DNA of 64,000 nt from Cyanophora paradoxa CCMP329 (Eukaryota; Plantae; Glaucophyta): NCBI GenBank assembly GCA_004431415.1, contig QPMI01000100.1, forward strand, positions 248,001 to 312,000, written 5' to 3'. Each line of letters opens with the position of its first letter. Position 1 is the first letter of the stretch. The position numbers and the translations under genes were made by a program. Positions 62 to 25,282 of the stretch are shown one piece after another. The notes beneath the pieces are model-generated. The model ran no database searches. It was not told the origin of the DNA and saw only the letters and a list, made by a program, of their open reading frames with translations.

Positions 62-796
62 ATGCCTCCCAAACGAAAGATAGGGATCCCAGCTGGGGCT
101 GTTGGCTATTCAGGTGGTGGAAACAGTGGTTCTATTAACACAGACCCACTTAAATTCAATGGCATGAATGAGGTGAAGCCCTCACAACAACAAGAAGACC
201 CCCTCAATGCTGCCTATGAGGAATCATTCGATGACAAAGCCCCACAGGCTTCAACCAGTGACCAACTCAATATATCACCAGAAGCCTCAAAAATGAAAGC
301 TGTTGCTGAGGGTGCCAGGCGAATTATTGGTGCTGCTGATGATAAAGGTTTAGGCTTGCAAGATCTGTCATTGGCTCGCAAAGGTGAAGGTCTAAGTAAA
401 GAATCAGACAAGGTTATTCAGTCTATGGCTGGTGAAGTCACATACAAGACTGCTCCCACTCAGAATGTTCATCGAATTCCCAAGGCTCAATGGGATGAGA
501 TGACTGCTAAACTCAAAGATCTGGAAGCCAAATCCAGTGCTTTGGAGCAGTATGTTACTGAGAAGAAAGAGAGAGCCAAGCTAAAGGAGATGCTTCGAAA
601 GGAAGTTTATAAAATGGGTATCACTGGTGTCCCAGATAAACAGTTTATTGCTAAGAAAGAGAACCAAATCGATGAGCAGGCAGTAGATGAAATGAAAACA
701 AAGACCCAAAAGGGAACCATTGAACCTGGTGCCACCAAAGCTGAAGTAGAAAAGGGAGTAGCCTCAGCAGTATATAAAAGACGAGTTTGGCTTTAA
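62..796 (+). CDS. Conserved hypothetical protein downstream of the ATPase (possible core/structural protein)
   Basis: 244 aa; highly similar to 32404-33135 in C; weaker positional homolog 14881-15564 in B. Confidence 0.85.
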   Translation: MPPKRKIGIPAGAVGYSGGGNSGSINTDPLKFNGMNEVKPSQQQEDPLNAAYEESFDDKAPQASTSDQLNISPEASKMKAVAEGARRIIGAADDKGLGLQDLSLARKGEGLSKESDKVIQSMAGEVTYKTAPTQNVHRIPKAQWDEMTAKLKDLEAKSSALEQYVTEKKERAKLKEMLRKEVYKMGITGVPDKQFIAKKENQIDEQAVDEMKTKTQKGTIEPGATKAEVEKGVASAVYKRRVWL

Positions 797-818
797 TTAT
801 CTCTGTTTTATTAGAGAT

Positions 819-1091
819 ATGGACATAATACGAAAGTTCTTCGAGATGTTCAGTCTGCATGTGGTGAGCAATTGCCACAGTGGATGTTGTGAGACAACAG
901 TGGAGTTTGAGATGTCAGATAATGAGGATAATGCCTCAGAAGCAAGAGAGAGAAGGAGGTCTACAGTTTCTGTGGAGTCAATGCCAGCAGACCCCACAGA
1001 GTATACATATGAGCAACAGGAGTATCCAAGGAGAAGTTCTCTGCCAGCAGAAAACGTTTTCTCTGGGAATATAAATGGAGGATACTATTAG
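819..1091 (+). CDS. Small Cys-rich protein (HxxxxCHxxCC motif)
   Basis: N-terminus EMFSLHVVSNCHSGCC is conserved in B (15769-16206) and C (32159-32377). Confidence 0.8.
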   Translation: MDIIRKFFEMFSLHVVSNCHSGCCETTVEFEMSDNEDNASEARERRRSTVSVESMPADPTEYTYEQQEYPRRSSLPAENVFSGNINGGYY

Positions 1092-1320
1092 TTTAATCGA
1101 GTTTACCAGTGATGAACCTGTTACTGAAGGTTCTATAAGACACATTCTAGCAATGCAGAAACGATATAGAGAGGACCCAGCATATAGAGAGTATAAAAAG
1201 CAGCAAGCCCTGGCATCCTATTATCGCAGAAAAGCCCGAAAAGAAGAGCAGAGACCCAGAGGAAGACCGATTAAATATTATTTGCCAACTGAAAGTAGCA
1301 ATGGACCCCCAGGTCTATAA
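1075..1320 (+). CDS. Small basic protein with AT-hook-like GRP motif (type 1)
   Basis: QKRYREDPAYREYKK...RPRGRPIKY; homolog 31692-31955 in C. Confidence 0.75.
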   Translation: MEDTISLIEFTSDEPVTEGSIRHILAMQKRYREDPAYREYKKQQALASYYRRKARKEEQRPRGRPIKYYLPTESSNGPPGL

Positions 1321-1473
1321 GAAAATTGAGAAAAAGCGGTCTCAGTATGCTACTGAGGCAGCTATAAAAGTTTACAGACAGGAACTGGTGTTCGCAACAA
1401 AAAATGACTTAAGGAAAAAGTAGATAGGTTGTATTGAGGAAAAATTATTTTCGTATCTACTATTAAAAGGGAA

Positions 1474-1800
1474 ATGCCGAATATCCGCAAGATACTCACA
1501 GATGATGAAAAAGCAGAGAAGCTGAGACTGAAAAGGGAGCAAGATGCCCAAAGAAAACGCGAAGCCTATCATAAAAAGAAGGAGGAACGATTATCCCAAG
1601 GAGCCGCTACAGTTCACACACCAGAAGAACTCAAAAAGATTGCCCTCAGACACCAGAGGAAATACAGGGAAAATGAAGAATATCGCGAACAGAAAAAGGC
1701 GAAAGCGCTGGAATACTACCACAAGAAAAAAGACGAACTACCCAAGACAACCAAAGAGCATAAACCGGTTGGAAGACCTCGGAAATATATCGAAGAATAA
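1474..1800 (+). CDS. Basic coiled-coil protein with AT-hook-like GRPRK motif (type 2)
   Basis: EKAEKLRLKRE...TPEELKKIA...GRPRKY; homolog 16331-16744 in B. Confidence 0.8.
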   Translation: MPNIRKILTDDEKAEKLRLKREQDAQRKREAYHKKKEERLSQGAATVHTPEELKKIALRHQRKYRENEEYREQKKAKALEYYHKKKDELPKTTKEHKPVGRPRKYIEE

Positions 1801-1920
1801 ATTCTCGATCGAAACAAATTTTGTAGAAATCGATTTGATCGGAGGCAAACAAATGACAGCTTTCTTCCCTCTTTTTTAAAACTGTACCTATATATCGAGA
1901 CAGTATCCCGACCCAAAACT

Positions 1921-2018
1921 ACTTAAGGACTTGGCAAATAATAGGATATATATAAAAGACAATTCCTCCTTCCGAAATTATTTTCTTCGTTAAAGGTAGA
2001 AGTCCCTCAAAATCGAAA
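1921..2018 (+). promoter_or_regulatory. Putative bipartite viral promoter (ACTTAARG ... AAATTATTTTCT)
   Basis: The same two motifs precede ORFs at 1474 and 16914. The AAATTATTTTCT-like part also precedes 16331 and 22671 and the minus-strand genes starting at 5280, 31479, 31955 and 38005. Confidence 0.5.
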
Positions 2019-4613
2019 ATGAACAAAATCGAGAAATTCGCCACCCCTGTTGAAAATGCTACATTCCTTAGTACTCTCATTGGTGATCGCAACAAGGTCA
2101 CCCATGTATTTGATTCTGCCGAAGATGCCCTTGAAGCCATTGATAATAGCAAGGTTAAGACCTGGGCTGAATGCATTCAGCCTGAACAAGTCACCAGAGT
2201 TTACCTGGACCTGGATAAATTCGCTGATTTGAAGGAGAACATTGCTGAAAACTATGCTGAGGCGGAAACTGTTGTAAGAGAGATGAGAGATAAGCTATGG
2301 AAGCGATCTGGGACCACTTCGATTAACGATATTGCTGTTGCAGTTCGCCATAGAAGGGTTTATTTGATCAAGGAGGATGTCACCAAGTTCAAGATCTCAG
2401 CCCACTTTATCATTAAAACACTTGCTTGCAAACATGAAGATATCCCCAAGCTTTTCAAAGCTATGGGATTGGTGAAAAATGAGGATTATGACAGTGGAGT
2501 TTACAGCTCCACACAGAACCTTATCTGCCTCAATTGCTGCAAAGGTGAGACTCTGGATGCTCAAAATAAATCGAAAAAAGATGTTGATAAAAACGTTTGC
2601 TTTAAGAAATTCGTTGACTGTGACAAAGTGTTAATGCGAAATGAGGACTTCTTTGTATCTTTCTTCTCAGCTTCTACTAAACTTGTGGATGAATCGAATA
2701 TTTCTGCATTCGCAAATTATAGCCCTGAGCCAAAACCAGTTAAAAAGGAGCCAAAAAGTGATAAAGTGAAGACTGAGAAGGTAGAAGCTGAAAAAGACAC
2801 TGAACCCGAAAATCCTGTTACTTTCGAACTGCTACAAAGTGTTATAATGGGTCTGAATGGCGAGAGAGCTAATGAGTATAAAACTTGGATTGATGTAGGA
2901 CTGGTCATCATCAATGTTGGGGAAGACAACAAATTTACCCCTAAAATGCAGGCTGAACTCTTCCACCAATTCTCAGAACAGAGTGACAAGTATGATTATG
3001 ATGAATGCCAGGAGAAGTTTACACAACTTCGCAGAAGCAAGAAGAAGGCTGAGCCTGGCAAAGTTTTGACCTTCAAATCCTTGGTTTATTGGTTGAGCAA
3101 AGATAACAATGAGCTTTTCAAGGAACTCTTCCCCAAAAAGTATGCATTCCTACCAGAGGACACAGATGAAATCGATTACAAGACTGCAAGTATCCCTCCT
3201 TTGGCTGAACATTACAATGTGCATAAGAGGTATTTCAATGCTCGAATGCATCATGTTGAAAATGTTGGTTGTGTGATGCTCTGGGATGAACAACTACTTT
3301 GCTGGATGCCAAAAGATATTGGAAAGCTCTCTACAAAGCATTTCCCCCACTTGATGCATAAGGTGATTGTGAATGAGGGGACAGATAATGAGAAAGAGAA
3401 ATGGGAGCAATCATTTAGGAAATGGATTGTGGATCCAACAGCCACAAGATCAACTTACATGGATTTCCTCCCACCTCCTGCTACTCTCAGTGCCAAATGC
3501 AAGTCTGTATTTAATCTCTATCCAGGAATGAAGGTCGACCATCAGCAATTCGAAAATGCTCCAGAGGATGTAACTGCTGAGATGATTAAGCCTTTCCTAG
3601 ATCACTTGTTCTTAATGTCTGGTGAAGATCAAAATACCTATGAATATCTGTTGAAATGGTTTGCCCACATGCTGCAAAAGCCTGGGGAACTCAATGGAGT
3701 ATCCTTAATCTTCATTGGTGAACAAGGAACTGGTAAAAATGTGTTGGTTGATACTTTCCAAAAGAAGATACTTGGAGATGCCCTGAGTTATGCAACTGGA
3801 AAGCCAAAAGAGGATCTGTTTGGTCGATTTGCCCACAATAGAGAGGATAAGATCTTGATTGTTGTGAATGAAGCCTCAGGCAAGGACACATTCGAAAATA
3901 ATGATATGCTCAAAGATCTCATTACTTCTGATAAGATTGTAATTGAACACAAAGGGATAGATTCATACACAAAAAGCAACTTTGCCAGGATTATATTCAC
4001 CAGCAATAACAACATTCCAGTGAAAATTGAAGCTGGAGATAGGCGATTTGTGGTTGTTGAAGTTAGTAAGAAATTCGCAAAAGATAGGTCATACTTCCTT
4101 CCACTTGTCAAATGGCTAAATGATCACTGCAATATTCGAAACATTGCCCACTATTTGAGAACCAAAGTTGACTGTGAGGATGTGAACTGGATTGCTGATA
4201 GACCCCTTACAAATAAATACTATTTAGCCCAACAGGTGTGCGCCCCAATCATCCTTATGTTCACTAAGTGGCTTGTGGATAGAGGCTTAATTTCCGAGAA
4301 TAAATGCAAGTCTGGTAGCCTTGTGGAAACCTGGAAGTGGTTCCAGGAGTTCATTACCAGCAACAAATATAAAAACGATTATAATAGTCGCAGATATTAT
4401 ACTGAAATGAGAAGTGTTACATATATTCAAGTGAAAACTACAAATGGCAAACAATACTATCATTTCCTATTCCCACAAGTATTTGAGGAATTCAGAAAGA
4501 TGAAACTTGTAGATGATGAGACTATTGAGGAAGAAGCTAATCCAAGAATGAAACATGACCTACCTGCTGCTGATCCTGATGCATCAGATTATGATTCTGA
4601 TGTTGAAGTTTAG
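2019..4613 (+). CDS. AEP (PrimPol-like) primase + PriCT-2 + SF3 helicase
   Basis: AEP motifs RVYLDLD, KISAHF and YDSGVY; PriCT-2-like YKTWIDVG...FSEQSDKYD; Walker A GEQGTGKN, Walker B IVVNEA, motif C IFTSNN, DRRF. Confidence 0.9.
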   Translation: MNKIEKFATPVENATFLSTLIGDRNKVTHVFDSAEDALEAIDNSKVKTWAECIQPEQVTRVYLDLDKFADLKENIAENYAEAETVVREMRDKLWKRSGTTSINDIAVAVRHRRVYLIKEDVTKFKISAHFIIKTLACKHEDIPKLFKAMGLVKNEDYDSGVYSSTQNLICLNCCKGETLDAQNKSKKDVDKNVCFKKFVDCDKVLMRNEDFFVSFFSASTKLVDESNISAFANYSPEPKPVKKEPKSDKVKTEKVEAEKDTEPENPVTFELLQSVIMGLNGERANEYKTWIDVGLVIINVGEDNKFTPKMQAELFHQFSEQSDKYDYDECQEKFTQLRRSKKKAEPGKVLTFKSLVYWLSKDNNELFKELFPKKYAFLPEDTDEIDYKTASIPPLAEHYNVHKRYFNARMHHVENVGCVMLWDEQLLCWMPKDIGKLSTKHFPHLMHKVIVNEGTDNEKEKWEQSFRKWIVDPTATRSTYMDFLPPPATLSAKCKSVFNLYPGMKVDHQQFENAPEDVTAEMIKPFLDHLFLMSGEDQNTYEYLLKWFAHMLQKPGELNGVSLIFIGEQGTGKNVLVDTFQKKILGDALSYATGKPKEDLFGRFAHNREDKILIVVNEASGKDTFENNDMLKDLITSDKIVIEHKGIDSYTKSNFARIIFTSNNNIPVKIEAGDRRFVVVEVSKKFAKDRSYFLPLVKWLNDHCNIRNIAHYLRTKVDCEDVNWIADRPLTNKYYLAQQVCAPIILMFTKWLVDRGLISENKCKSGSLVETWKWFQEFITSNKYKNDYNSRRYYTEMRSVTYIQVKTTNGKQYYHFLFPQVFEEFRKMKLVDDETIEEEANPRMKHDLPAADPDASDYDSDVEV

Positions 4614-4622
4614 GTTTATTCA

Positions 4623-4804
4623 AAAGTGGACTCACAGTTGACTCAAATGTATCATAAAAGACCCAAACAGTCTTTTATTAATGGTTTATTTATCGATTAG
4701 GTTGACTAAGTGGGGGGAGTTGACTCATTTTTTCACAGATTCTGAAAGAGGACTCTGCCCTAAAAAGAAATAAAAAGTGCCTCAACTCCACCCACTAAGT
4801 CAAC
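4623..4804. repeat. Iteron-like GTTGACT/GTGGACT module with a 24-bp inverted repeat (candidate origin of A)
   Basis: gttgactaagtggggggagttgac (4701-4724) is inverted, imperfectly, at 4781-4804; the module recurs at 11255-11441. Confidence 0.75.
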
Positions 4805-5280
4805 TTAACACTTAGATCACTTCTACATACTGGACATTTGAATTGATCTTTTGATGGCAGCTTTGCTGTGCAGTCACCACATACTTGACTATTACACTTG
4901 AAACAACTCCATGTCCCTGGGGGTTCATCAGTTTCCAAACAAATAACACATGTTTTATCCTCTTCCCTCTCAAACGATATGATGACATCATGTAAGAATG
5001 ATTTCAGAATACTCTGAGAAATCGATTGAGGAACTAAGTAACCACTGTCTTTGAAGAGAATAAAGCAAAGCTGCTTTCTCTCAGGAGAATATCCATTTAC
5101 CAAATTCAAGTTATGAAACATTTTGACATGCTTTTCAGTATAAGAAATCACATAAATTTTGTTTTCATTCAATGAGCGATCCAAAAGATCTCTAGTTGCA
5201 TCAGTAAACATACTTGTGGCATCCTCAACAGGTATTGAGGTCGAAGCTTCCAGGGTCTCTATGATATCTTGGGTATTCAT
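4795..5280 (-). CDS. RING-finger protein (putative E3 ubiquitin ligase)
   Basis: C-terminal CVIC...CFKC...CGDC...CPVCR. Confidence 0.8.
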   Translation of the reverse strand: MNTQDIIETLEASTSIPVEDATSMFTDATRDLLDRSLNENKIYVISYTEKHVKMFHNLNLVNGYSPERKQLCFILFKDSGYLVPQSISQSILKSFLHDVIISFEREEDKTCVICLETDEPPGTWSCFKCNSQVCGDCTAKLPSKDQFKCPVCRSDLSVKLT

Positions 5281-5407
5281 CGATCCTTTCTACTAGTAGA
5301 AAAGAAAATAATTTTTCCTCTATATCCTTTTTTCAAATTCGCTTTAAGCCATTTCCAAAAAATGATTTAAGAGATAGAAAAATATATTTATATGTTAGAA
5401 GTAAGAC

Positions 5408-5758
5408 ATGGCTGGAACAGATCATGATTCTGGATCGATCTATATGATTGAGAGTCAGGAAATGAACAAAATCTACATAGGGAGAACCTCACAAAAAGTA
5501 CAAATCCGATGGAAACAACACAAATCAGGTCAAATGCCATCAACAGCAGACCTATGTAAGGCTGCTGATGTGAAGTTCTCAGTCTTATATTCAAGTAAGA
5601 AGGGTGGGCATGAAGACCTAATGAACAGAGAAGCATATTACATGTATCTGTTTGAACCTTGGATAGTCAATTTACAAAAACCGAAATCAAGATTTAGGAT
5701 TAACAGGTTTTTGCGATTCCATTCAGAGGAAGCCAATGGATCCATTAAAACATTTTAA
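5408..5758 (+). CDS. GIY-YIG endonuclease
   Basis: GSIY...IYIGRT...RWKQH...EAYY...VN motifs. Confidence 0.85.
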   Translation: MAGTDHDSGSIYMIESQEMNKIYIGRTSQKVQIRWKQHKSGQMPSTADLCKAADVKFSVLYSSKKGGHEDLMNREAYYMYLFEPWIVNLQKPKSRFRINRFLRFHSEEANGSIKTF

Positions 5759-5819
5759 AAATGCGTTTAGAACATCCTAAAATAAAATATCCCCTTAGAA
5801 TAGGAACAAGTTAGGAATA

Positions 5820-8800
5820 ATGCCCCGAATTACCAACAAACTCATAAGGGAGAAGAAATGGGAACTCATGGGATTGCTGGGAACACTTTATGCAGCCCAT
5901 GAAATAACAGAGGCTGAATATGACCGGGAAATAGATTTAATTGCAAAGGGTAGACCCACTTTAGCCAGATTAACCAGAAAAGCAAATAACCTATATGATA
6001 AAATTGAAACCTTGGATGAACTGGATCGCCTAAGGCAAATAGAACCTGAGGCAGAAGATGGAACAGCCATAAATGAATTATATCGCTGGCTCACTTACAG
6101 AGCCAGAAGGGAAGTTGTTGTAGATGTGATTGAATTCCTGGACAGAATTGCTACATCCCTTCCTAATCGATTAAAACAGGGTTTAGATCAATTCAGGGCA
6201 ATCAAGGTTCGCTTGTCTTTTATTTGCAAGTTCGTTAAAGTCAGCAATCCGCAGGTTTGGATATCGAAATACATTTACAGTGATTATTTTGTATTAACCA
6301 GATCGAGAAATATTCGAACTGAGCTGAATAAAGCAGCCCAAATGTGTCAGGAGCAGATGAATGTGGTTGATAGCTATCGCTTAGAAAGAATTGAAATACT
6401 CAGAGTGGCTATTATGAGTTATGCTCCAACAGGTGGATGCTTTCTACAAACCCCAGAGTGGATTGCTAGGAAGAGAGCCACAGTAAATATTCGAAATATT
6501 GATGATTCCTGCTTCGAAAATGCAATTTTGGCATATATTCACAGAAAAGCGATAAACTCCCATAAGAGGAATGAGCTTTCACAATATCGCAAATGGAAAT
6601 ACTCAGCAATCGCTTATAATCCGCTGGCTCTCAATTTCGACAATATCCCATTCCCTGTTGCCTGTGATGCTGAAATAATTGATAAATTCGAGGCTCAAAA
6701 TGCAGGCATTAGCATTAATATATTTGGAATCGATGGAGAGGTTATTTATCCCCTGCATCAATCAAGTAACCCAGGCAGAAAGCATAAGGTTAATCTCATG
6801 CTGATATTTGATGATGAAGGGAATGGACATTATATTACAATCATGTCCCTTTCAAGGCTATTGAAAGTAAACCATGAAACATACAATGATCAAAAGTTAC
6901 ACTACTGTGACACATGCTTATCTCGATTTAGGTCTGAAGCTAAACTCACTGCTCATGTGGACTCAAACAGATGCATTGATTGGAGACTCTCAAAGGGAAT
7001 CACACCTAAACCTGAGACCACCATAGAGTTTGGACTGAAAAACCTAAGGAAAACTGTTTGGCTTCCTGTTGTGGTTTACTGCAAGATTGAACATAGAAGC
7101 ATCCCCATAGATGCATCGAAATCCAAGAGAGAAGTCTCAGCAGTCAACCTCAGAGTAGTCAATGGGGAAGATGTTCAAGATTTTCGATTTGAGGGGCAGG
7201 ATCCAATGGGAGGTCTGTTTGAATGCTTGGAGTCCAAAGCAAGAGAACTAATCGATTTCCTGTTCACCAATATTCCCATGAATGAACTCACTGATGAGCA
7301 AAAGGCTATTTACAGAGCTTCTAAACACTGTTACCTTTGCAGTGAGAGGTTCACTAAAGAGAACTTCAAATGCAGAGATCATGATCACCACACAGGTCAT
7401 TATATTGCTCCTGCATGCAGAAACTGCAATCTCCATAGGAGAATCTCAAAGCAAACCAAAGTTGCAGTTGTTGTTGACCAAATGGATGACTGTGGGACAT
7501 TCATTTTCAGAAAAATAGCAGGCATGGGTGATAAAAAGCGAATCGAAATCCTTTCGAAAAACTTTGATCAATACCTTTCATTGCAATGGGGTCTTTACAA
7601 GTTCATTGATGCAAGTAATTTTATGGACTTTGGGGCTGCTGATGTAGATGAGTTAATGAGCAAATTCCAGGCTTTCAGAAGGCTTTCACACTCAGTATAT
7701 GGATTGGACCCAGTTCATTATGTATCTGCACCTGGGTTATCTTGGGATGCTATGCTTAGGACCACCAAGGCAAAAATAGAGCTTATAAGTGATGTAGAGC
7801 AATACGAATTTGTTGAGAGGGGAATCAGGGGTGGCTTTGCAACAATGCCTTGTAGGTATGCTGAGGCTGATGGTGAGAACTCCCATATAATGCTGTTTGA
7901 TGCTAACAACTTGTATGGCTACTGTTTGAGTCAGCCAATCCCAGTTGGTGATTTTAGATGGGAGACCGAATTCAACCCACAAGATAACAGATCCAGTTTC
8001 CTGGAAGTTGATCTGGATTACCCAATTAGGCTATATCTAGACCACAGTGATTTCCCCCTAATTATTAACAAGAAAATAGTAGAATATGCAGAATTATCAC
8101 AATATCAAAAGAGCCTATTAGATCTCTCAGGAGAAGAGCTTGATAAGACCCCTAAGCTAACTGCAACCTTTGGTTCTGTGACCAACTATGTGATTTCTGA
8201 GCCTCTTCTGCAATACATGTTAGCTAAAGGTGTGAAACTAAAGAAGGTTCACAGGGTCCTATCATTTACTGTGGCTCCTGTAATGAAACTCTACATTGAG
8301 CTGAACACTGATATGAGAAGGAAAGCAGTGAATAAATTCGAGGCTGATTTCTACAAGCTCATGAATAACTCAATATATGGGAAATGCATTGAATCATGTA
8401 GAGGTCGATCTGTGGTAAAGATTGCCAACACTGAGAAGCTATTTATGAAATATGCAGCCTCTCCATTGGTGAAATCTACAAGCCCCATTAACGAAAAAGC
8501 AGTTGCCTTTGAGTTTTACACAAAACATGTGAAGCTAGATAAGCCTGTTGCTATTGGGGCTTATGTTTTGGATGCTGCCAAACTGCATAATTACAAGTTC
8601 TTCTATGATACTGTAAGGTCCCAATGGTCCAAAGCCAAGTTACTATTCCATGATACTGATTCCTTTTGTCTATATATCGAATCTAAGACCCTCCAAAAGG
8701 ACCTAGAGAATATATCCTTTAATCTGGACTTAGGAGGACCTAACAGAATGACCCCAGGTAAATACAAAAATGAGATGCCAGGTTCTGCAATCCTGGAGTA

Positions 8801-9065
8801 TGTAGGTCTGAGAGCCAAAGTTTACAGTTTCAGAACAGCTGAGATTGAGAGAAGTAAGCTATCTGGAACTTCCACTGAGGAACTCCAATTCAATGATTTT
8901 AAGGAGTGTTTATTTGCAGGTATCAGCAAGACTGTGACTGCAAAGCAGAAGAGAAGGGCAGATCACACAATAATAGATACTGTGAGTAGAAGGGTTGCCC
9001 TAAACTGCTTTGATGCAAAGAGATACATCTTACCAGATGGTATTAATTCTGTTCCTTTTAATTAA
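5820..9065 (+). CDS. polB: Polinton-type family B DNA polymerase (pPolB) with degenerate exonuclease
   Basis: DANNLYG, KLMNNSIYGK, HDTDSF and YVGLRAKVY; endonuclease VII-like Zn insert (CYLC...DHDHHTG...ACRNCN); N-terminal CF...HY protease-like dyad. Confidence 0.92.
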   Translation: MPRITNKLIREKKWELMGLLGTLYAAHEITEAEYDREIDLIAKGRPTLARLTRKANNLYDKIETLDELDRLRQIEPEAEDGTAINELYRWLTYRARREVVVDVIEFLDRIATSLPNRLKQGLDQFRAIKVRLSFICKFVKVSNPQVWISKYIYSDYFVLTRSRNIRTELNKAAQMCQEQMNVVDSYRLERIEILRVAIMSYAPTGGCFLQTPEWIARKRATVNIRNIDDSCFENAILAYIHRKAINSHKRNELSQYRKWKYSAIAYNPLALNFDNIPFPVACDAEIIDKFEAQNAGISINIFGIDGEVIYPLHQSSNPGRKHKVNLMLIFDDEGNGHYITIMSLSRLLKVNHETYNDQKLHYCDTCLSRFRSEAKLTAHVDSNRCIDWRLSKGITPKPETTIEFGLKNLRKTVWLPVVVYCKIEHRSIPIDASKSKREVSAVNLRVVNGEDVQDFRFEGQDPMGGLFECLESKARELIDFLFTNIPMNELTDEQKAIYRASKHCYLCSERFTKENFKCRDHDHHTGHYIAPACRNCNLHRRISKQTKVAVVVDQMDDCGTFIFRKIAGMGDKKRIEILSKNFDQYLSLQWGLYKFIDASNFMDFGAADVDELMSKFQAFRRLSHSVYGLDPVHYVSAPGLSWDAMLRTTKAKIELISDVEQYEFVERGIRGGFATMPCRYAEADGENSHIMLFDANNLYGYCLSQPIPVGDFRWETEFNPQDNRSSFLEVDLDYPIRLYLDHSDFPLIINKKIVEYAELSQYQKSLLDLSGEELDKTPKLTATFGSVTNYVISEPLLQYMLAKGVKLKKVHRVLSFTVAPVMKLYIELNTDMRRKAVNKFEADFYKLMNNSIYGKCIESCRGRSVVKIANTEKLFMKYAASPLVKSTSPINEKAVAFEFYTKHVKLDKPVAIGAYVLDAAKLHNYKFFYDTVRSQWSKAKLLFHDTDSFCLYIESKTLQKDLENISFNLDLGGPNRMTPGKYKNEMPGSAILEYVGLRAKVYSFRTAEIERSKLSGTSTEELQFNDFKECLFAGISKTVTAKQKRRADHTIIDTVSRRVALNCFDAKRYILPDGINSVPFN

Positions 9066-9068
9066 GAG

Positions 9069-10454
9069 ATGCCAGCAACTGGAAGAATAGTTAGGAGAAC
9101 CACTGAGCAACTGCAAGGAAACCTACTGCCTATCACAGTTCCAAAGGAGGAAAAGGGGGAATCTCGAATTGTCAAAAAGTCTGAAATGAAAGAGCTTGTC
9201 CCAGTAGAGATCCCAGTTGCTATTGCAGTGAAAGAAACCAGCAAGATTGCCAAGAGATTCTATGATGTGAGAACAGGTTACAAAGGGCTTCAAGCTATGA
9301 GGGCTGAGTTACCAGATGAATCCTATAAGCAGTTGCAAGAGTTCTATAAGAAACAGGAAGTTGTTCAGATCAATGCACCTGCTATATCTAGAAAGAGAGA
9401 TCCCATGGTCCCAATAAGGCAACCCCTTGATACCTATGTGATTGATTTGCTCTTTTTCCCAGCTTATAAGAAACAAAACAATGGCTATGATACCTTTATG
9501 ACTGCTATGGAATCAACACTGAGAACTGGGTATATTATACCTATCAGAGATAAATCAGCTCTCACTACATTAGCTGCATTTAAACAGCTTGAGATGAGAG
9601 TAGCAAGACCCATAGTAAAAGTTCAATCAGATGCTGGAAGTGAGTTCCAAAATCGAATATTCCAGGAGTATCTATCTAGTAAATACATAGAACACCAAGT
9701 GAGTGGAACTGCAGACCACAGAAGCCAAGGTCGAATTGAAGCCTTTAACAAGCAGATTAAGAGACTGATCACAAACTACTGCATAGCCAATAACACAGCT
9801 AGATTCTTTGATGTGTTAGGTGATATTGAGTATAATTACAATAATACAGTTCACTCAGCTACTAAGATGAAGCCAGGTGAAACTACAGAGGAGCATTATA
9901 GGTATATAGTGGGATTAGAAGATGAAAGATTCAAGAAATCAATAGCTTATCTTGATACCATGCAGCCTGGCATGTTTGTTAGAGTGAAAGTAGAGAAGAA
10001 CCCCTTTGCTAAACAGGGTAACAATTGGTCTAGGATGGTTTACACTGTTGATAGTAGAGAAGGCTTTAAGTTTAAGCTAAGGAGTCCCACTGGAGAGATC
10101 ATAGATAACAGATTTGCATTCCATGAGCTGTTGCCTGTGAATGCAGTTGAGTATCTGGAAACACCCACAGTGGATGCCTTAGAGCAAGCTAAAGAGGAAG
10201 CTAGGGTTGATGCTTCTATAAGGAGAGAGGGCATAGAAGCTGCTAATGAAGTCCCAGATAAGCCTTTGATAGAGGCTAGAAAGGAGAAGGCTGGGAAAGT
10301 TAACAGGGAACTCAAAAAGCTCACTATAGCAGGCACACAGAAACTTTCAGAAGTGAATAGCCAGAGATGGTATAATGACTTTCAGACTACTAAGGAGTCA
10401 TATACAGCCCCTAAACCTCAAAGAACACTAAGAGAAAGAACCAAAACTAGCTAG
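9069..10454 (+). CDS. int: Retroviral-like (rve) DDE integrase
   Basis: IDL / SDAGSEF / GRIEAFNK triad; YNNTVHSATKMKP as in Maverick integrases. Confidence 0.92.
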   Translation: MPATGRIVRRTTEQLQGNLLPITVPKEEKGESRIVKKSEMKELVPVEIPVAIAVKETSKIAKRFYDVRTGYKGLQAMRAELPDESYKQLQEFYKKQEVVQINAPAISRKRDPMVPIRQPLDTYVIDLLFFPAYKKQNNGYDTFMTAMESTLRTGYIIPIRDKSALTTLAAFKQLEMRVARPIVKVQSDAGSEFQNRIFQEYLSSKYIEHQVSGTADHRSQGRIEAFNKQIKRLITNYCIANNTARFFDVLGDIEYNYNNTVHSATKMKPGETTEEHYRYIVGLEDERFKKSIAYLDTMQPGMFVRVKVEKNPFAKQGNNWSRMVYTVDSREGFKFKLRSPTGEIIDNRFAFHELLPVNAVEYLETPTVDALEQAKEEARVDASIRREGIEAANEVPDKPLIEARKEKAGKVNRELKKLTIAGTQKLSEVNSQRWYNDFQTTKESYTAPKPQRTLRERTKTS

Positions 10455-10769
10455 TTTGCTAGCCGAAAACTCGTTTTTTCCAAATATATGTATGACAGAT
10501 ATACATATATGCATATGATATACACATAGTCTTGTAGAGCATATCAAGCGCTTCACAGCGCTATGCAGAACGTTGCGTTTTGATGATCTGGTGATGAGAT
10601 ACAAGCGTTTAAAGATGCCGATAAAAATGTATATGTATATATATATATTACTATTTTTTCCAAACATTTTTTCTCGGTCAACCGGCAATACGGAGGTTTG
10701 TGTACATATAGTGTATATATGTCGGAGGTTTGTGTATATATGATGCATATATGACGTGACGTCCCGCAT

Positions 10770-11035
10770 GCATAACGCATGAGTCACGCATGCGTAACGC
10801 GTGCGTGACGCGTGCATAACGCGTGCGTAACGCGTGCATAACGCGTGCGTAACGCGTGCGTAACTTGTTACGGATAGATAATGGGTAACGCATGCGTAAC
10901 GCGTGCGTAACGCCTGCGTAACGCGTGCATAACGCGTGCGTAACGCGTGGATAACGCGTGCGTAACGCGTGCGTAACGCGTTACGGATAGATAATGGGTA
11001 ACGCATGCGTAACGCGTTACGGATAGATAATGGGT
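10770..11035. repeat. 11-bp tandem array (RTAACGCGTGC)n with interspersed GTTACGGATAGATAATGG units
   Basis: Directly visible; rich in ACGCGT. Confidence 0.95.
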
Positions 11036-11254
11036 AAAATTTGGGTTCCGGAACCCAAAAATCCTAGAAAATCATACAAACTGCTGTTTCTATTCACCAA
11101 CTCATCAGCTATTAAAACCGCGACCATCGCCGGAATCCTCTTTGCATGCTCTATACATCAATGCTACTTTCGCGAACCGGATCTTAGATTTACCTGGACA
11201 CTGCATTTACTAGGCATCTCCCCTTGATTCCCCCTATTATATAATATTTATATT

Positions 11255-11700
11255 AAAGTGGACTCAAGGTTGACTCATATTAATCGTAAAAGTAGTAAAA
11301 GTATATGGAATTTGTTACGAATTCAATGCAAGGGTTGACTAAGTGGGTTGAGTTGACTGAAATTTCACAGGAAATATTTGGGACCAAAAGTTTTCTAAAA
11401 AGGATTTCAAAAAATGTGTCAACTCCCCCCACTTAGTCAACCCTGACCATAAACAGTAAGGATTATAGCAAACATGTATCACAAAGTGAACATTTTGAGT
11501 CCACTTAGAAGATCCACTTTTGAAATCAAAGTTGATTTTGCTTGAAATTTCAAAGTTGATCTAAAAGTGAGTCCACCCTGATTGATTATGGTAACAAAGT
11601 TGACTAAGTTGACTAAGTTGAGTCATCTTAAGAAATTCAAGGAGACTAAGAGTTCAAAATGTTTATGAAAAGTGAGTCAACTTAGACCACTTATGGTAAC
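11255..11700. repeat. Terminal-region copies of the element A iteron module
   Basis: Homologous to 4623-4804; 11418-11441 is the exact reverse complement of 4701-4724; more gttgact/gagtc units continue to about 11700. Confidence 0.8.
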
Positions 11701-11969
11701 AAAGTTAAATATTTAATTGATTTAATCGGAAAAGAACATGATTTAATCGAATTTATTGATATAATTCCGATTAAATTCATTTAGGATTCAATTAAGATCA
11801 ATCGAAGTTATTGATATAATTCCGATTAACTCTAATTAAGATACAATATCGATTAATCGAGTTTATCGATATAACATCGATTAAATTAATTGAAAATGCA
11901 TATAAAAATATGAAAATTCATGTGAAAATTCAAATACATTAATCGATTTTATTGATATAACATCGAATC

Positions 11970-12042
11970 ACACATATGAATATTCATATTTTAATCCTGA
12001 GGCGGAACGCCGAGGGATTAAAATATGAATATTCATATGTGT
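11970..12042 (+). repeat. Terminal hairpin of element A (28-bp perfect arms, 17-nt structured cap)
   Basis: acacatatgaatattcatattttaatcc - tgaggcggaacgccgag - ggattaaaatatgaatattcatatgtgt. Confidence 0.95.
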
Positions 12043-12128
12043 ATCAGAAGATGCAAATTCAGTGCATTGCCCTCGCTCATAATATCATGATAATCGGAGC
12101 TGATGGTATTCGCAGAGTATCTTCATGA
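12043..12128 (+). pseudogene. 3' remnant of the element B major capsid gene, cut by insertion of A
   Basis: QKMQIQCIALAHNIMIIGADGIRRVSS* aligns ungapped to the C MCP end RTITVNVRALMHSFIIVDKDGIRRINL*, and is followed by the ATPase as in C. Confidence 0.8.
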
Positions 12129-12186
12129 GGAATTCGTGCGATTACCACAGTCAGTCTTATTTTTCTATTGTTTTTATAGTGAAAGA

Positions 12187-12731
12187 ATGCAAAAAGGGAC
12201 GACGCCCATGGATCTCGAAGAATGGAACCCGAAACAGAGGGTGAAACTTCCCGCACGATTTCTCCTATTGGCGAAAACCAATTGTGGTAAATCGGTATTC
12301 TTAAAGTGGCTGATCAAAGAACTCGAAGATCAGATCTCATACGTTCTGGTCTTTTGTCCAACGAGTTTCAACGGTTTCTGGGACAAATTACAGACGAAGT
12401 GCATGACACCTGGAAGCCGGAATATGTGGAGTCGATCATAGAAGCCCGCAAGAAGGCTATCATTGCGGGTAAGAAACCAAAGAATATTCTCATTGTGCTC
12501 GACGATTGTTTGGAGTCCGGAACTATCGATCTTTCGCGCGATCATTTGCTAAATAAATTGATGGCGCAAGGTCGTCATACGTTTTGTTCCGTGGCTTTAA
12601 TATCGCAGAAACTAACAAAGCTTTCAACGATCATTCGCAGCAATGCGGAGTATATCATATTCCTAAGCTGGTCAAACATGCGAGAGTTTGAAGCATATCA
12701 CGAAGAGTTCGGGAACATGGATAAAGAGAGT
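12187..12731 (+). pseudogene. Frameshifted, truncated duplicate of the element B ATPase
   Basis: Part of duplication copy 1; 1-nt deletion near 12380; truncated at 12731. Confidence 0.85.
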
Positions 12732-13794
12732 GTAACGCCTGCGTAACGCGTGCATAACGCGTGCGTAACGCGTGGATAACGCGTGCGTAACGCGTGCGTA
12801 ACGCGTTACGGATAGATAATGGGTAACGCATGCGTAACGCGTTACGGATAGATAATGGGTAAAATTTGGGTTCCGGAACCCAAAAATCCTAGAAAATCAT
12901 ACAAACTGCTGTTTCTATTCACCAACTCATCAGCTATTAAAACCGCGACCATCGCCGGAATCCTCTTTGCATGCTCTATACATCAATGCTACTTTCGCGA
13001 ACCGGATCTTAGATTTACCTGGACACTGCATTTACTAGGCATCTCCCCTTGATTCCCCCTATTATATAATATTTATATTAAAGTGGACTCAAGGTTGACT
13101 CATATTAATCGTAAAAGTAGTAAAAGTATATGGAATTTGTTACGAATTCAATGCAAGGGTTGACTAAGTGGGTTGAGTTGACTGAAATTTCACAGGAAAT
13201 ATTTGGGACCAAAAGTTTTCTAAAAAGGATTTCAAAAAATGTGTCAACTCCCCCCACTTAGTCAACCCTGACCATAAACAGTAAGGATTATAGCAAACAT
13301 GTATCACAAAGTGAACATTTTGAGTCCACTTAGAAGATCCACTTTTGAAATCAAAGTTGATTTTGCTTGAAATTTCAAAGTTGATCTAAAAGTGAGTCCA
13401 CCCTGATTGATTATGGTAACAAAGTTGACTAAGTTGACTAAGTTGAGTCATCTTAAGAAATTCAAGGAGACTAAGAGTTCAAAATGTTTATGAAAAGTGA
13501 GTCAACTTAGACCACTTATGGTAACAAAGTTAAATATTTAATTGATTTAATCGGAAAAGAACATGATTTAATCGAATTTATTGATATAATTCCGATTAAA
13601 TTCATTTAGGATTCAATTAAGATCAATCGAAGTTATTGATATAATTCCGATTAACTCTAATTAAGATACAATATCGATTAATCGAGTTTATCGATATAAC
13701 ATCGATTAAATTAATTGAAAATGCATATAAAAATATGAAAATTCATGTGAAAATTCAAATACATTAATCGATTTTATTGATATAACATCGAATC

Positions 13795-13867
13795 ACACAT
13801 ATGAATATTCATATTTTAATCCTGAGGCGGAACGCCGAGGGATTAAAATATGAATATTCATATGTGT
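13795..13867 (+). repeat. Second copy of the element A terminal hairpin (within the duplication)
   Basis: Identical to 11970-12042. Confidence 0.95.
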
Positions 13868-14011
13868 ATCAGAAGATGCAAATTCAGTGCATTGCCCTCG
13901 CTCATAATATCATGATAATCGGAGCTGATGGTATTCGCAGAGTATCTTCATGAGGAATTCGTGCGATTACCACAGTCAGTCTTATTTTTCTATTGTTTTT
14001 ATAGTGAAAGA

Positions 14012-14878
14012 ATGCAAAAAGGGACGACGCCCATGGATCTCGAAGAATGGAACCCGAAACAGAGGGTGAAACTTCCCGCACGATTTCTCCTATTGGCGAA
14101 AACCAATTGTGGTAAATCGGTATTCTTAAAGTGGCTGATCAAAGAACTCGAAGATCAGATCTCATACGTTCTGGTCTTTTGTCCAACGAGTTTCAACGGT
14201 TTCTGGGGACAAATTACAGACGAAGTGCATGACACCTGGAAGCCGGAATATGTGGAGTCGATCATAGAAGCCCGCAAGAAGGCTATCATTGCGGGTAAGA
14301 AACCAAAGAATATTCTCATTGTGCTCGACGATTGTTTGGAGTCCGGAACTATCGATCTTTCGCGCGATCATTTGCTAAATAAATTGATGGCGCAAGGTCG
14401 TCATACGTTTTGTTCCGTGGCTTTAATATCGCAGAAACTAACAAAGCTTTCAACGATCATTCGCAGCAATGCGGAGTATATCATATTCCTAAGCTGGTCA
14501 AACATGCGAGAGTTTGAAGCATATCACGAAGAGTTCGGGAACATGGATAAAGAGAGTTTTAAGCGCATGTTCCAAGAATTCTGTCATAGCTACCAAGCGA
14601 TCATTCACGATAATACCGGGTATTCTGTGCGATGGTGGGTCGAAAAAGCCGATATGATCGATGACCATCCGTTTACTAAGTTCCACAAGCGGGCGGCTTT
14701 TGAAGAAAAGAAGCGAAAACAGCAAGAGGAGCAAGCGACAAAACCGCCGCCTGTCAAAGATTCGACAACTGTATGCAAAACTTTATCCAAATTTGAGCGT
14801 GAGCTTGAAGGTATCCCCAAACTTTCGCAAATTTCGCCTAAGAAAAAGAAAATGTTAATCAAATGTAAGAGAAGATAA
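14012..14878 (+). CDS. A32/FtsK-like genome packaging ATPase
   Basis: Walker A AKTNCGKS, Walker B IVLDD, QGRH...ISQ; the start at 14012 is preferred because the upstream ATG overlaps the MCP remnant. Confidence 0.9.
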   Translation: MQKGTTPMDLEEWNPKQRVKLPARFLLLAKTNCGKSVFLKWLIKELEDQISYVLVFCPTSFNGFWGQITDEVHDTWKPEYVESIIEARKKAIIAGKKPKNILIVLDDCLESGTIDLSRDHLLNKLMAQGRHTFCSVALISQKLTKLSTIIRSNAEYIIFLSWSNMREFEAYHEEFGNMDKESFKRMFQEFCHSYQAIIHDNTGYSVRWWVEKADMIDDHPFTKFHKRAAFEEKKRKQQEEQATKPPPVKDSTTVCKTLSKFERELEGIPKLSQISPKKKKMLIKCKRR

Positions 14879-14880
14879 TC

Positions 14881-15564
14881 ATGGTCTACCGAAAGAAGCC
14901 TCAAACCATTCAAACGGTCGCTTCTGGTAATCCTAATCGCGGACTTGAAGAGTCTGGATTAACGTCGGGCGGCGGTCTCGAAATGCCCGAATATCTTATA
15001 GACACTTCGCCAGAGGAGGTCGCCAAGCAAGAGGCGATTATTGCGAGTGCCACCGCGGACAAGGGCAACCAAGATAGCGGTAAACGCCAAATGGACGATT
15101 TAGCTACTGTAAAACCACAGATTGGAGGCGGCTCTGTTGATGAAGCAACCGACAAAGTAATTAAAGCGCAAGTTGTCGCAAGCCAGCACAAAACGCAAGA
15201 CGTCCCGAAAGCCGCCGAAACCGAGCTTAAAAAGCGCGGATCCTATCAAAAACACACGGTTCCTGTCGACGTTGTCATGAGCTTTGAAGAGAAAGTGCGA
15301 GACCTTGAAATGAAAGTATCAAACTACGAGAAATGGATGCAAGATTATAACGAACGCAAGAAATTAAAGGGGCTCGTGAAGAAAGAGATCTCCAAACTCG
15401 GATTAAAGCAAAAAGTCGACGTAGAGGAGATTAAAAAGGAGGAAAAAACAGATGCACAAGCCGTAACTCGTCAGCAATCGGTTGCCCCGCAATATGCACA
15501 TATAGTGCCGACAGCACCAGCGAATTTCGCGGCAATGCTCGGTGGTAAACGCCATATCCGCTAA
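14881..15564 (+). CDS. Hypothetical protein, positional homolog of 62-796
   Basis: Same position; ERKKLKGLVKKEISKLGL vs ERAKLKEMLRKEVYKMGI. Confidence 0.75.
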   Translation: MVYRKKPQTIQTVASGNPNRGLEESGLTSGGGLEMPEYLIDTSPEEVAKQEAIIASATADKGNQDSGKRQMDDLATVKPQIGGGSVDEATDKVIKAQVVASQHKTQDVPKAAETELKKRGSYQKHTVPVDVVMSFEEKVRDLEMKVSNYEKWMQDYNERKKLKGLVKKEISKLGLKQKVDVEEIKKEEKTDAQAVTRQQSVAPQYAHIVPTAPANFAAMLGGKRHIR

Positions 15565-15768
15565 TGACTGTGAATATCCGCAAGGCAAAGCTGAACCCGC
15601 CCGTATTTAGAGCGTGTCTTTATGTGGACTCCCTTGCAAAAGGGACAGGTCGGCTCCATAAACAGCATTATAAGGTCGACTAATTCGTATGGGAACACAC
15701 GAGCAAGCAATAGCCTCATTCCCTTTTATTTTCTCCGATATTTAATACGTTGCCCATTTGTAGGGTCG

Positions 15769-16206
15769 ATGAATTTCATCACACAATGCATTGAGATGTT
15801 TCAGCTTCATGTCGTGTCTAATTGCCACAGTCCATGCTGTGACACAACCGTAGAAATCGAAATATCAGATGGCGACGACAATGGAGGTAGGCGCCTTTCT
15901 GTATATTCTAACCACAGCGACAATCACAACCACCCACGATCTCGATCGCCTTCGCCTGTGCCCGCGGCTATGAGTTCTAATATCGAAACCGCTCAGATAG
16001 AGGACGTGCATGTAGAGCATATTAGAAGGCGCTCATGTCCTGAATTTGTGGAAGGGCATTTTCGCGCTGATTCACCTTATCCGATGTATAGATTGGATCA
16101 AATGGCATTAGGCGACGATGAAAATGTAACGAACCCTTATGTTTATCCTCAGCAACCTTATGTATATCCTCAGCAACAAGAACGAACCGTCTGGAATGGT
16201 TATTGA
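15769..16206 (+). CDS. Small Cys-rich protein (CHxxCC)
   Basis: MNFITQCIEMFQLHVVSNCHSPCC; start inferred from homologs. Confidence 0.75.
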   Translation: MNFITQCIEMFQLHVVSNCHSPCCDTTVEIEISDGDDNGGRRLSVYSNHSDNHNHPRSRSPSPVPAAMSSNIETAQIEDVHVEHIRRRSCPEFVEGHFRADSPYPMYRLDQMALGDDENVTNPYVYPQQPYVYPQQQERTVWNGY

Positions 16207-16913: not shown

Positions 16914-19900
16914 ATGCCGCGCGCAACCAACAGAATCGCTAACAATGTTCGGGATGAAATTATCGGATACATTATGCAGGGATTGAGTCAGGATTTGCTA
17001 ACCGAAGAACAGGCGCATTGGGCGATGCACAACACAATGAATCGGAAGCCCAAGCTCCAAACGCTGATAGATATTCGGGATACTCTGAATGGAATCATTA
17101 ATCCCCGCGTTTTCCGCAGGGCAGAGCGGAAAGAGAAGCGCGCCGCTCGCACCCAAGTAAATATAGAAAAGCAAAAGCAAAAAGAACAAGAGGCTAAGCG
17201 TTTACAGCGTTTCGATCGCAAGCAAGAAAAGAAGCGGGCGAAAGAAGCGAAGCTTGAAGCGAAGCAACAGAAAGGCAAACTAAAAGCGGTAGAGGATGCG
17301 ATTAAACGCACTATTCTCGATCCAATCGCCCAATATGATCCGGAAACTCTCGCGACAGTTACGTTCAAGATGTGGGCACCTGGATCCGGTGCTCGGTCTT
17401 CGGAGGTAATTGTTATTCCCGGAATTCCCGAATTAAATATACCAGACAGTTCCTTTGTCACCTACCGCAATATAAGAGAGACAGTTTCGGTGAGTGTGTT
17501 GCGAAGCTTTGCTCTGGCGAAAATGGATAGAATGTCTCAAATTCTAATTAGACCGGGTCAAGTTCGTCATGATTGGCATGAGAGCGAATCAATCTTCTAT
17601 TTACTCAAAAACTACGATGAATTGGCAGTAGGACTTAAAACTTTCGGCGAAGCATACGAGGTGTTCTTCTTGAAGACACCACCAACCGAGGAACAGAAAA
17701 GACTACGCCTAATGTTTGATGATTTTGGCGGCAGTATCGATGATGCCTTTATAACTGTTCATGAGGTCGCGATCGATGGGGACGAAGGTGTCGAGGACGA
17801 TGGAGCCGGTGCTATCCCTGGCAATCGCTATGAGTTCCTGGATGAGGAGCTAATGGACAGTATGCGATGCACCGCGATTATGAGCAAATTCACAGACTAC
17901 ACATTAAATCCAAACGCGTCTGAGTTCGAAGATGTTATTGAGCTCCCCAAATCATCGACATCTAACGCTTGCGGCTACGATATGATCATCTCCACATGGG
18001 GAGCGTCCATTAAGAAGTGTCAGGAGGCGCCAAAACCGCGATATACTGACTTAACTATGTCGTACGACGGTCTCTATAAATTCTTTCACGGTCGTGAACG
18101 CACACCTGGCGACTCTCTGGCTCTCACGCTCCGCCACATCGAGAAATTCTGTAAGAGAATCCAGACAGGCTTCCGCGTCTTTGATGTCGACGGAAAGTTA
18201 ATATACAAATTCGCGGCAGAATCGATTAACAAAAACATCAATCCCCGTAATATTCACTTTATGATTCACAACAAGCATATCTATATATTCAACGATAACA
18301 TCAAGTCGCTCGAAATGCGCATGGCAAAGATGGAGGTCGAAGAGCTCGATAATCATGTTCCTAAGTCGAACTCTTCGTTAGCACTCTATAAAATTCCGAC
18401 GTGTCTTACTCACGATATCTTCGCGCACACATCCAAGGATCTGTTAAAGATCACGCAACTTAAACTATCGCCCGACGAGCGCAGTTTCATCCGCATTCTT
18501 TATACTGGGCGCGAAGGTCTGGAAGGTCTTCTATTTACGTTCCTGAAAATGCGATATGAACCCGCTGTGAAGCTAACACCATCGAAACAGATCGACAGCA
18601 TCACATTCAAAGCTAATGGCTCGATGTTCTCTATCAAAGATCCACGCACAACAGACCACTTTATTGAGCAAGATTTCGAAACAGAGGAGTATTATAATAA
18701 GGTCTGTGAAATCGGGAAGGGATTCCGCGAGTCGCTTCTAAATGCGACGAATATCTCACATTACAGCCCGAACATGCGCGAAATTCTCACGCACTACAAG
18801 CGATCCGCACTCAGCGGCTATTTCTATAAGCCAAACCCGAAAGCTACCTACACAGCTGTCGATATGGCGAAGTGCTACCCTTCGATACTGAAAGGCATGC
18901 AATATCTTCCGAAGTACAATGTATTCGATGACTTCGTTCCCTTTAAAGCGGGAAGCGACATTCTCGAATACGCGATCTACTACGTGCGTGTCGTTGCGTT
19001 TGAGAGAGAGCAAGCGACTTTCGCCGACGATGAGGATGTAGATTATGATGCCGCCATGTCTCGCAAGATTGATGGAATCGAAATTATTCTGGATCGCGCA
19101 TTTTCCGTGAGTGGTCGCTGTTATAATTTCATGACAGGCTACACTCTCTCCATGCATTGGGCGGACGTAAAGGACAAGATAGAGATTATCGCGGTCGCGG
19201 AGCCTTCGCATTTGGTGCCCAATACGTCGATCGCTGAGATGCAAAAAGTGCTGTCAAGCGACATTCAAACCACAGATAAGAAGCATATTTTAGTGAAAGA
19301 GATCGGAATGCTCGGCAAATTCCAAGACTCGCAAACATCCACGAAAATGTTCTACAACCGTGCCGAGGCTGAGAGGTTCGCCCAAGAATGCGGAGGAACA
19401 GTAGAGGTGTTTACTTTCAATCCTAAGAATTCGAAACGTGTCAAAACTCTTAGCGAATTCGAAGGTCACATCTATTTCGTTAAGATCAGCTCCCACCGCG
19501 AGCTCGTTAACGGATTCCTTCCTATCCACTTTCATATTTACGATCGCAACCGTGCTAATATGTTTGCGCAATACAAGCGCCTGACAGCGCGCGGGCACAA
19601 GGTTGCCGGGATCAGAACGGATTGCCTATATATCGAAGGTTCATGGACAAGTAAGAAAGAGTTCGACCGAAATGCGTTTGAGAACATGGGCAAATTCAGC
19701 TATATTCCCGGGAAAAGATGCCCTGAGAATGCACTCCGCCCACCACGGGGTGTAACTCTCGAATTTCAGGATCCCGACACACTCATTAACCGGTTCTCGC
19801 TGAGAGACGAATTTAATCCTGAGTGCTTTAATTGGGTTGCGGAGCTCCATAATCGTATGCTTGTCCTTGCTGACATGCCCGGAAGTGGAAAGTCGACACT

Positions 19901-25251: not shown

Positions 25252-25282
25252 GGAAGCGAGCGAGAGGTATTGAGCAAGTAGA

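Follow-up and report, generated by a model that had tools for sequence, protein, structure and literature searches.

The genes of element A, the first of three related Polinton-like elements (A, B, and C) lying side by side at positions 1-39142 of the analysed stretch of Cyanophora paradoxa DNA (64,000 nucleotides, hereafter the window), are open and strongly depleted of CG dinucleotides, with the context TCGA largely spared. CG is plentiful in elements B and C of the same genome. If B and C are fair baselines, codon usage points to selection against CG more than to passive decay. That the genes of A were recoded by selection to evade an enzyme that recognises CG, with the silencing CG methylation of the host as the leading candidate, is a real possibility that falls somewhat short of probable.

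CG depletion in element A

The integrase gene of A (9069-10454, plus strand) is an open frame for a rve-type protein of 461 aa (PF00665, E value 1.4e-4, below the gathering cut-off) and has only three CG in 1386 bp. They lie at 9165, 9654, and 9732, each within TCGAAT and each as codon positions 1 and 2 of Arg CGA, with an observed/expected ratio (o/e) of 0.053. Base composition predicts 56 CG (Poisson p 1e-20), and a null preserving the protein and the third-position composition predicts 64. The manual count in the first-pass annotation, three CG all in TCGAAT where dozens would be expected, agrees exactly with these figures. Arg is coded by three CGN and 32 AGR codons. The protein is 37% identical (aa) to the integrase of B, which passes the Pfam gathering cut-off.

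Between 62 and 10454 there are 124 CG in total, 50 of them in TCGA. The o/e of A genes is 0.05-0.33, except for the 108-aa ORF at 1474-1800 (plus strand) with 0.92, whereas eight genes of B have 0.83-1.39, nine genes of C 0.97-1.35, and host DNA at 39100-64000 has 1.08; B and C taken as whole elements reach 1.29 and 1.09. Sister families in one genome are up to twentyfold apart in CG content. The same annotation had called CG rare over most of 62-10454, the ORFs of A intact, and B, C, and the host CG-rich. All of this holds, the seven listed ORFs of A being open, and A stays depleted relative to B and C after codon correction.

The survival of CG depends on the flanking bases. In the seven A genes pooled and compared with the codon null, TCGA is mostly kept (41 observed/47 expected) and TCGC/GCGA about half kept (28/55), followed by TCGG/CCGA (9/49), TCGT/ACGA (11/69), CCGC/GCGG (5/35), GCGC (2/16), CCGG (2/20), ACGC/GCGT (1/40), ACGT (1/27), and ACGG/CCGT (0/39). 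CG with neither a 5' T nor a 3' A was seen 11 times and expected 177 times. The order of survival is TCGA > TCGC/GCGA >> TCGG, TCGT > rest, and the enrichment of survivors in TCG and CGA contexts had been described correctly. A or T stands two bases upstream of 80% of the surviving CG. ApT methylation beside CG was considered and found unneeded, since TTCG (72) and ATCG (64) are equally common in A. Shielding of CGA by the risk of a stop codon was also rejected as the reason for TCGA, because CG survives across codon boundaries too (19/33 in the primase gene and 13/34 in the gene of protein-primed DNA polymerase B, pPolB).

The loss is graded along the element. In the deepest purged zone (6720-10454), counts are 13/21 for TCGA, 4/70 for CG with one T/A flank, and 0/80 for CG with neither; TCGA makes up 13 of the 17 CG there against a share of 11% in B and C together (p 7e-10). 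TCGC/GCGA falls from 24 upstream of 6720 to one downstream (p 0.011 relative to TCGA), and the pPolB gene has an o/e of 0.27 overall and 0.13 (codon null) after 6720. The right terminal region (10455-12042) escapes purging. The loss of CG along the element did not follow summed read depth (rho -0.18, p 0.39). With the depth of the purge varying by module, the C-terminus of the polymerase and the integrase being deepest, recombination among families with differing histories is likely.

Organization of the three elements

Element A runs off the left edge of the window within its packaging ATPase gene. The last 10 codons of this gene (1-33, plus strand) encode NKLMRYKRGL and a stop, which is the C-terminus of the Pox_A32 ATPase of C; the rest of the ATPase gene, the capsid genes, and the left end of A precede the window. 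A 244-aa ORF (62-796, plus strand, CG o/e 0.22) is 83% identical (aa) to its orthologue in C (32404-33135). The 108-aa ORF is followed by a primase-helicase (2019-4613, plus strand; PriCT_2 and DUF5906; 65% aa identity to C; o/e 0.33) that kept TCGA and TCGC, a RING-finger protein (4795-5280, minus strand; o/e 0.25), a GIY-YIG nuclease (5408-5758, plus strand; o/e 0.33), and the pPolB (5820-9065, plus strand; PF03175, E value 1e-12) with 14 CGN and 58 AGR codons for Arg. Contigs of three sequencing runs skip 551 bases in 4803-5355, and thus the RING gene is missing from many copies of A.

The right terminal region of A consists of CG-rich 11-mers in tandem, repeats of 55 bp that are rich in ATCGA, and a hairpin (11970-12042) ending in TGTGT, and its unpurged CG suggests a protein-binding role. 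Terminal-region repeats lie at 10772-11028, 11742-11989, and 23902-24156 (the 11-bp array, the 55-bp repeats, and an array of 32 bp). The stretch 10907-12720, which spans the end of A and the beginning of the ATPase gene of B, has a second copy at 12732-14546 (1815 columns, no mismatch, one gap); this 1.8-kb tandem duplication is either real or an assembly artefact. A appears to have integrated immediately upstream of the ATPase gene of B. One hairpin end each of A and C lies in the window, and these long hairpins (11970-12042 with a copy at 13795-13867, and 39072-39142) share an almost identical core around GCGGAACGC and finish in TGTGT.

Element B (13868 to approximately 24500, plus strand) encodes an A32 ATPase, a 1438-aa helicase-bearing protein, a rve integrase, a DUF5710 protein, and an AdoMet decarboxylase. 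The 1438-aa protein (16914-21230) has a C-terminal SF1-helicase-like part, weak Pfam matches, and the place that pPolB has in A; it may represent a swapped replication module adjoining a homologous integrase. The AdoMet decarboxylase gene (23010-23402, minus strand; PF02675, E value 1.5e-11) has an ESH segment that was aligned to solved proenzymes, and its product might deplete the methyl donor and thereby dampen methylation, or else act in polyamine synthesis.

Element C (approximately 24500 to 39142, minus strand) encodes pPolB, a primase-helicase, an A32 ATPase, and a capsid-like protein, and is 63-83% identical (aa) to A in three proteins. It has an in-frame stop in pPolB at 28273 (minus strand), a TGA where A has an aligned Arg, which is the change expected of CpG deamination, and a TAA in the capsid-like gene at 35069 (minus strand). 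Probably this copy is inactive, or the stops are assembly errors. A host stretch occurs twice (39143-40587 vs 48071-49509), and C appears to have integrated into one of the copies. The host DNA (39143-64000) has 68% GC and includes a kinesin exon at 60028-60750, whose product matches the EukProt protein tig00000402_g248.t1 at 100% identity. A host patch at about 56750-57900, with 51% GC, CG o/e of about 0.6, and raised TG and CA, is possibly an old repeat and is too small for a context test.

All three are integrated Polinton-like viruses (PLVs), related to Maverick-Polintons. The PLV replication module is present in A as pPolB (PF03175) and the PriCT_2/DUF5906 primase-helicase, and the packaging ATPase is represented by Pox_A32 matches in B and C. 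The capsid candidate of C had no Pfam match; its Atlas neighbours are viral at 0.97-0.98, some with Capsid_NCLDV in 13-18% of members, and the recognition value is low. An adenain-like cysteine protease was not found among the 25 ORFs scanned, A and B being only partly inside the window. Endogenous PLVs and Maverick-Polinton elements of protists (PMC10120064; 10.64898/2026.06.19.733378) have the same pPolB, primase-SF3 helicase, rve integrase, A32 ATPase, and capsid-like gene, and likewise a GC content below that of the host and many related copies.

Copies and variants

At least half of A's sampled words are contained in 15 of the 24 listed sequencing runs. Contigs matching A number 904-1860 in three runs and are mostly 90-100% alike. 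The summed depth in run X2, which is not a copy number, is 10,000-16,000 over the integrase of A and 61-67 for contigs identical to the window copy of C. Contigs and depth together indicate no more than that each of A, B, and C exists in multiple copies.

Among the 40 best-supported of 790 differences between the window copy and other copies of A, one adds a CG and three remove one; the CG hole looks family-wide and not private to the window copy. Among the 40 best-supported of 1106 differences in B and C, 15 of 26 transitions touch CpG (23% expected, p 1.2e-4), and this excess suggests that the CG-rich B and C are methylated and deaminating. Three of these 15 CpG transitions are in TCGA, with about 10% expected, so that TCGA is not spared there in this small sample. 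In host duplicates, 22 of 54 transitions are at CpG (35% expected).

Selection and deamination

Passive decay would mean a long stay in methylated chromatin, C-to-T deamination of methylated CG that is slower at TCG, and purifying selection that kept the ORFs. TCG deaminates least in human mutation spectra. The decay reading agrees with TG and CA at 1.2-1.4 times the codon null in A, with TG as the commonest fate of C's CG in the A orthologues (35/142 in pPolB), and with the CpG transitions enriched among B and C variants. It agrees also with the environmental locus L039, which has the same sparing of TCGA and raised odds of T before G and of A after C (2.18 and 1.92, values that are without a matched control). 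Nevertheless we regard passive decay as unlikely, and this rests on the comparison with B and C. They are assumed to be fair baselines, C being a relative of A and not its ancestor.

The share of A among non-G NCN codons is 0.359 (206/574) in A, 0.364 in B, and 0.341 in C, so there is no NCA excess in A relative to B or C. A deamination model with exchange rates from the window-variant comparison and 20-fold G-to-A predicts a share of about 0.47 when starting from C and about 0.54 from B; tested against 0.483, the observed share has a binomial p of 1e-9. For T before G at four-fold sites, the ratio of odds ratios between A and C is 0.99 (CI 0.68-1.44), where about 1.54 is expected under deamination. 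Between A and B it is 1.60 (CI 1.05-2.44), where 2.8 is expected, and relative to A's own non-G baseline the odds ratio is 1.86; on these two comparisons T before G is raised, as decay would have it. The bias from CG to TG or CA at synonymous sites, proposed earlier as a check, is therefore absent for CA against both B and C and for TG against C, and present in part for TG against B. Polarising the fate of CG by context between A and C failed, the four-fold sites being saturated (62-71% differ).

Arg codons also speak against decay. Where the Arg is conserved and the partner has CGN, A has AGR at 21 of 29 sites in pPolB, 13 of 18 in the primase, 11 of 11 in the integrase, and two of seven in a fourth gene. 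This recoding requires a C-to-A change. Where a CGN Arg is not conserved in these four genes, it is replaced by Lys in 14 of 29 cases and by His, Gln, Cys, or Trp in four. Signs of RIP-like hypermutation were not found in A, with TA at 0.73-1.03 of the null, hence no TA excess, and with open ORFs.

Vertebrate genomes have a CpG o/e of roughly 0.2. The loss of unflanked CG in the coding DNA of A (0/80 in the deepest zone) goes deeper, and the host DNA in the window is undepleted. The suggestion that A had cycled through methylation and deamination is accordingly disfavoured. Its alternative, that A evolved CpG avoidance to escape silencing, fared better in that avoidance is preferred to decay by the NCA share, TG against C, and the AGR codons, while the cause of the avoidance has a rival in a restriction-type nuclease.

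Palindromes absent from the elements

Palindromes were counted in the coding DNA of window 1-38005 and compared with synonymous-codon shuffles (observed/expected). Element A has GGCC 0/12, GTAC 2/21, and GCAC/GTGC 11/34. Element B has GGCC 0/18, CTAG 0/12, GGNCC 0/15, and GTAC 2/21, and element C has GGCC 0/11, CTAG 0/16, AGCT 12/45, and RGCY 46/112. The host part of the window contains 345 GGCC. The holes vary by module, with eight CTAG in the integrase of A and one in its primase. CpG deamination cannot create such non-CG holes. They look like restriction-site avoidance, and word-level selection demonstrably shapes A, B, and C. The earlier interpretation had missed these holes, which make a viral nuclease a serious rival cause of the CG hole in the same elements. 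RGCY and GTAC are, we presume, sites of chlorovirus enzymes. Neither word was found in the passages searched of PMC7248222.

Under this rival, the partner of A in replication would be a giant virus, or else a PLV in competition with it, and the nuclease of this partner (possibly a methyl-CG cutter) would destroy DNA with CG outside TCGA; an adenine methylase might shield TCGA, and each family would be tuned to another helper. We consider it rather unlikely as the cause of the CG hole. The palindrome holes in A, B, and C differ by element and by module like the CG hole, and similar holes are present in 16 of the 103 environmental relatives, with GATC as the missing word in nine of them. PLV methylases have been proposed as a guard against the restriction systems and nucleases of giant viruses (PMC12220804; 10.64898/2026.06.19.733378), and giant-virus-like insertions have been reported from C. 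paradoxa (PMC12344493). Against it, the CG hole affects an entire dinucleotide, is graded by the flanking bases, and includes non-palindromic 4-mers, whereas the palindrome holes are all-or-none. A TCGA methylase leaves the half-kept TCGC/GCGA unexplained, and no helper virus, nuclease, or methylase gene that would fit was found in the 64-kb window. A study of Acanthamoeba mimivirus-virophage systems (10.1101/2019.12.21.884833) found no role of methylation there.

Distant relatives and a former host

The environmental pPolB set comprises 103 loci (107 fetched, four duplicates dropped), its metagenome part being the 80 retained of 546 matches from 11 of 64 parts. Close relatives of A were not confirmed in the viral-contig and metagenome scans, where the loci recovered were no more than 27-39% identical; searches with proteins yielded three matches for the integrase, one for the primase, and two for the capsid candidate. 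Fourteen of the 103 loci have a CG o/e below 0.45. L039, L056, L092, and L065, about 30-35% identical in pPolB, keep TCGA at 0.9-1.3 and unflanked CG at 0.08-0.19. L039 is nearest to the signature of A (TCGA 25/19, unflanked CG 8/104), and the other three rest on small counts. L010, L068, and L028 are CG-poor with TCGA lost too. In L039 (1-5295), which has nearly the CG signature of A, CCG is almost absent. In L011, L024, L026, and L030, GATC is at 0 with 32-45 expected in each.

Sparing of TCGA thus recurs in four of 103 distant loci and is not a fingerprint of Cyanophora. A further reading is that the signature became established under stronger CG pressure, in an earlier host or environment, before A brought it into this genome; it would then be uninformative on the enzymes of the present host. 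B and C being CG-rich in the same genome, A being a mosaic of modules with different holes, the pattern in the four loci, and a metagenome protein (P0001) that is 76% identical to the integrase of A all agree with such an origin. The closest relatives found for A, however, are C and B in the same genome, and the variants of A (best 40 of 790 differences) show no return of CG, as relaxed selection would permit. An origin of the signature in a former host is decidedly unlikely in our view.

Escape from CG silencing

The preferred explanation, recoding to escape silencing by host CG methylation, would work as follows. Integrated copies would be methylated at CG, and copies poor in CG would be silenced less and would reactivate or spread more. 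Synonymous recoding (CGN to AGR and the like) would strip CG while the proteins stay intact. The surviving W-T-C-G contexts would be those that the methylase or its reader handles worst, with the weakest selection there. C. paradoxa has 32% CG methylation, DNMT1, and DNMT3, and its repeats and viral genes are methylated and silent (PMC12344493). PLVs are without 5mC in a host lacking DNMTs (10.64898/2026.07.28.741278), and across protists the CpG content of the genome does not follow the level of 5mC (PMC12695648). B and C are CG-rich and multi-copy in the same host, so that methylation by the host is not in itself enough to force the purge.

The idea that the spared TCGA reveals the specificity of the host methyltransferase is partly weakened. 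On the supporting side, CTCGAG, with a TCGA core, is the lowest-ranked CpG context for methylation maintenance in vertebrates (PMC13082072). On the opposing side, mouse DNMT1 in vitro, with the classes read by eye, has ATCGAA, ATCGAT, TTCGAA, and TTCGAT in its preferred class and CACGCC, CACGAG, CACGGG, and CACGAC in the worst class (PMC7381644). In A, 33 of 50 TCGA are within hexamers preferred by mouse DNMT1, and both CACG and CTCGAG are at 0. To these are added the three of 15 CpG transitions in TCGA in B and C, and the sparing shared by distant elements. Survival as the inverse of DNMT1 preference was suggested by six example hexamers and fails on the full mouse DNMT1 table, although algal enzymes may differ. 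Escape from silencing has against it TCGA not being spared in B and C, the mismatch with mouse DNMT1, the TG excess relative to B, and palindrome holes from another selective agent.

Relation to known systems

Integrated DNA viruses carry CG methylation also in Amoebidium (PMC11244446), as they do in C. paradoxa (PMC12344493), and in Amoebidium adintoviruses it depends on context and is high at CGC/GCG (PMC11244446). In those systems the mark is set by the host, whereas here it is the target that seems to have been eliminated, by the virus and with TCGA spared. The endogenous protist PLVs differ in another way, having methylase and Tet genes as counter-measures and not a genome-wide avoidance of CG or palindromes, in the passages searched of PMC10120064 and 10.64898/2026.06.19.733378. 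Tet-like genes of PLVs are considered likely anti-silencing factors (10.64898/2026.06.19.733378), and one in an endogenous giant virus is discussed in 10.64898/2026.10.09.758095. Neither a methylase nor a Tet gene was found in the 64-kb window.

With the avoidance of restriction sites in phages, the elements share the complete absence of palindromes of 4-5 bp (GGCC, CTAG, GTAC, GGNCC) from coding DNA. They differ in being eukaryotic viruses in an algal nucleus, with putative cognate enzymes likely from giant viruses, and the loss of CG itself is graded and not all-or-none. RNA viruses and small DNA viruses of vertebrates suppress CpG, including a bias from CGN to AGR. A is similar to them in its synonymous loss of CG with intact proteins and different in its strong hierarchy of flanking bases and in the divergence of sister lineages in one host; we know of no CpG sensor of this kind in algae. 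Methylated transposons and targets of fungal RIP are likewise repeat families that lose CG. A differs from them in having no NCA scar, no TA excess beyond the null, open ORFs, and a change common to the family and not private to single copies.

Literature searches on CpG depletion or site avoidance in PLVs, from which subscription journals were mostly excluded, found no report. CpG suppression and avoidance of restriction sites are known kinds of change; what is new is that endogenous algal PLVs show both together, in a pattern specific to each family. A wider reading, tentative and on balance somewhat doubtful, is that the forbidden words of each PLV family (GGCC, GTAC, CTAG, GGNCC, RGCY) name the nucleases of helper giant viruses that await isolation, that A has gained in its CG recoding a third means of countering silencing in addition to methylase and Tet genes, and that the CG-rich B may blunt methylation by its SAM decarboxylase instead.

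At issue is whether integrated PLVs are passive cargo or fighters of host silencing, and the evidence offered in the PLV papers cited here consists of enzyme genes (methylases, Tet). The pattern of A points to selection, and the question is testable with existing methylome data of C. paradoxa. The element-specific absence of palindromes is arguably as interesting as the CG hole, as these holes offer a route from sequence alone to predict unknown restriction enzymes of helper viruses and to match PLVs to their helpers.
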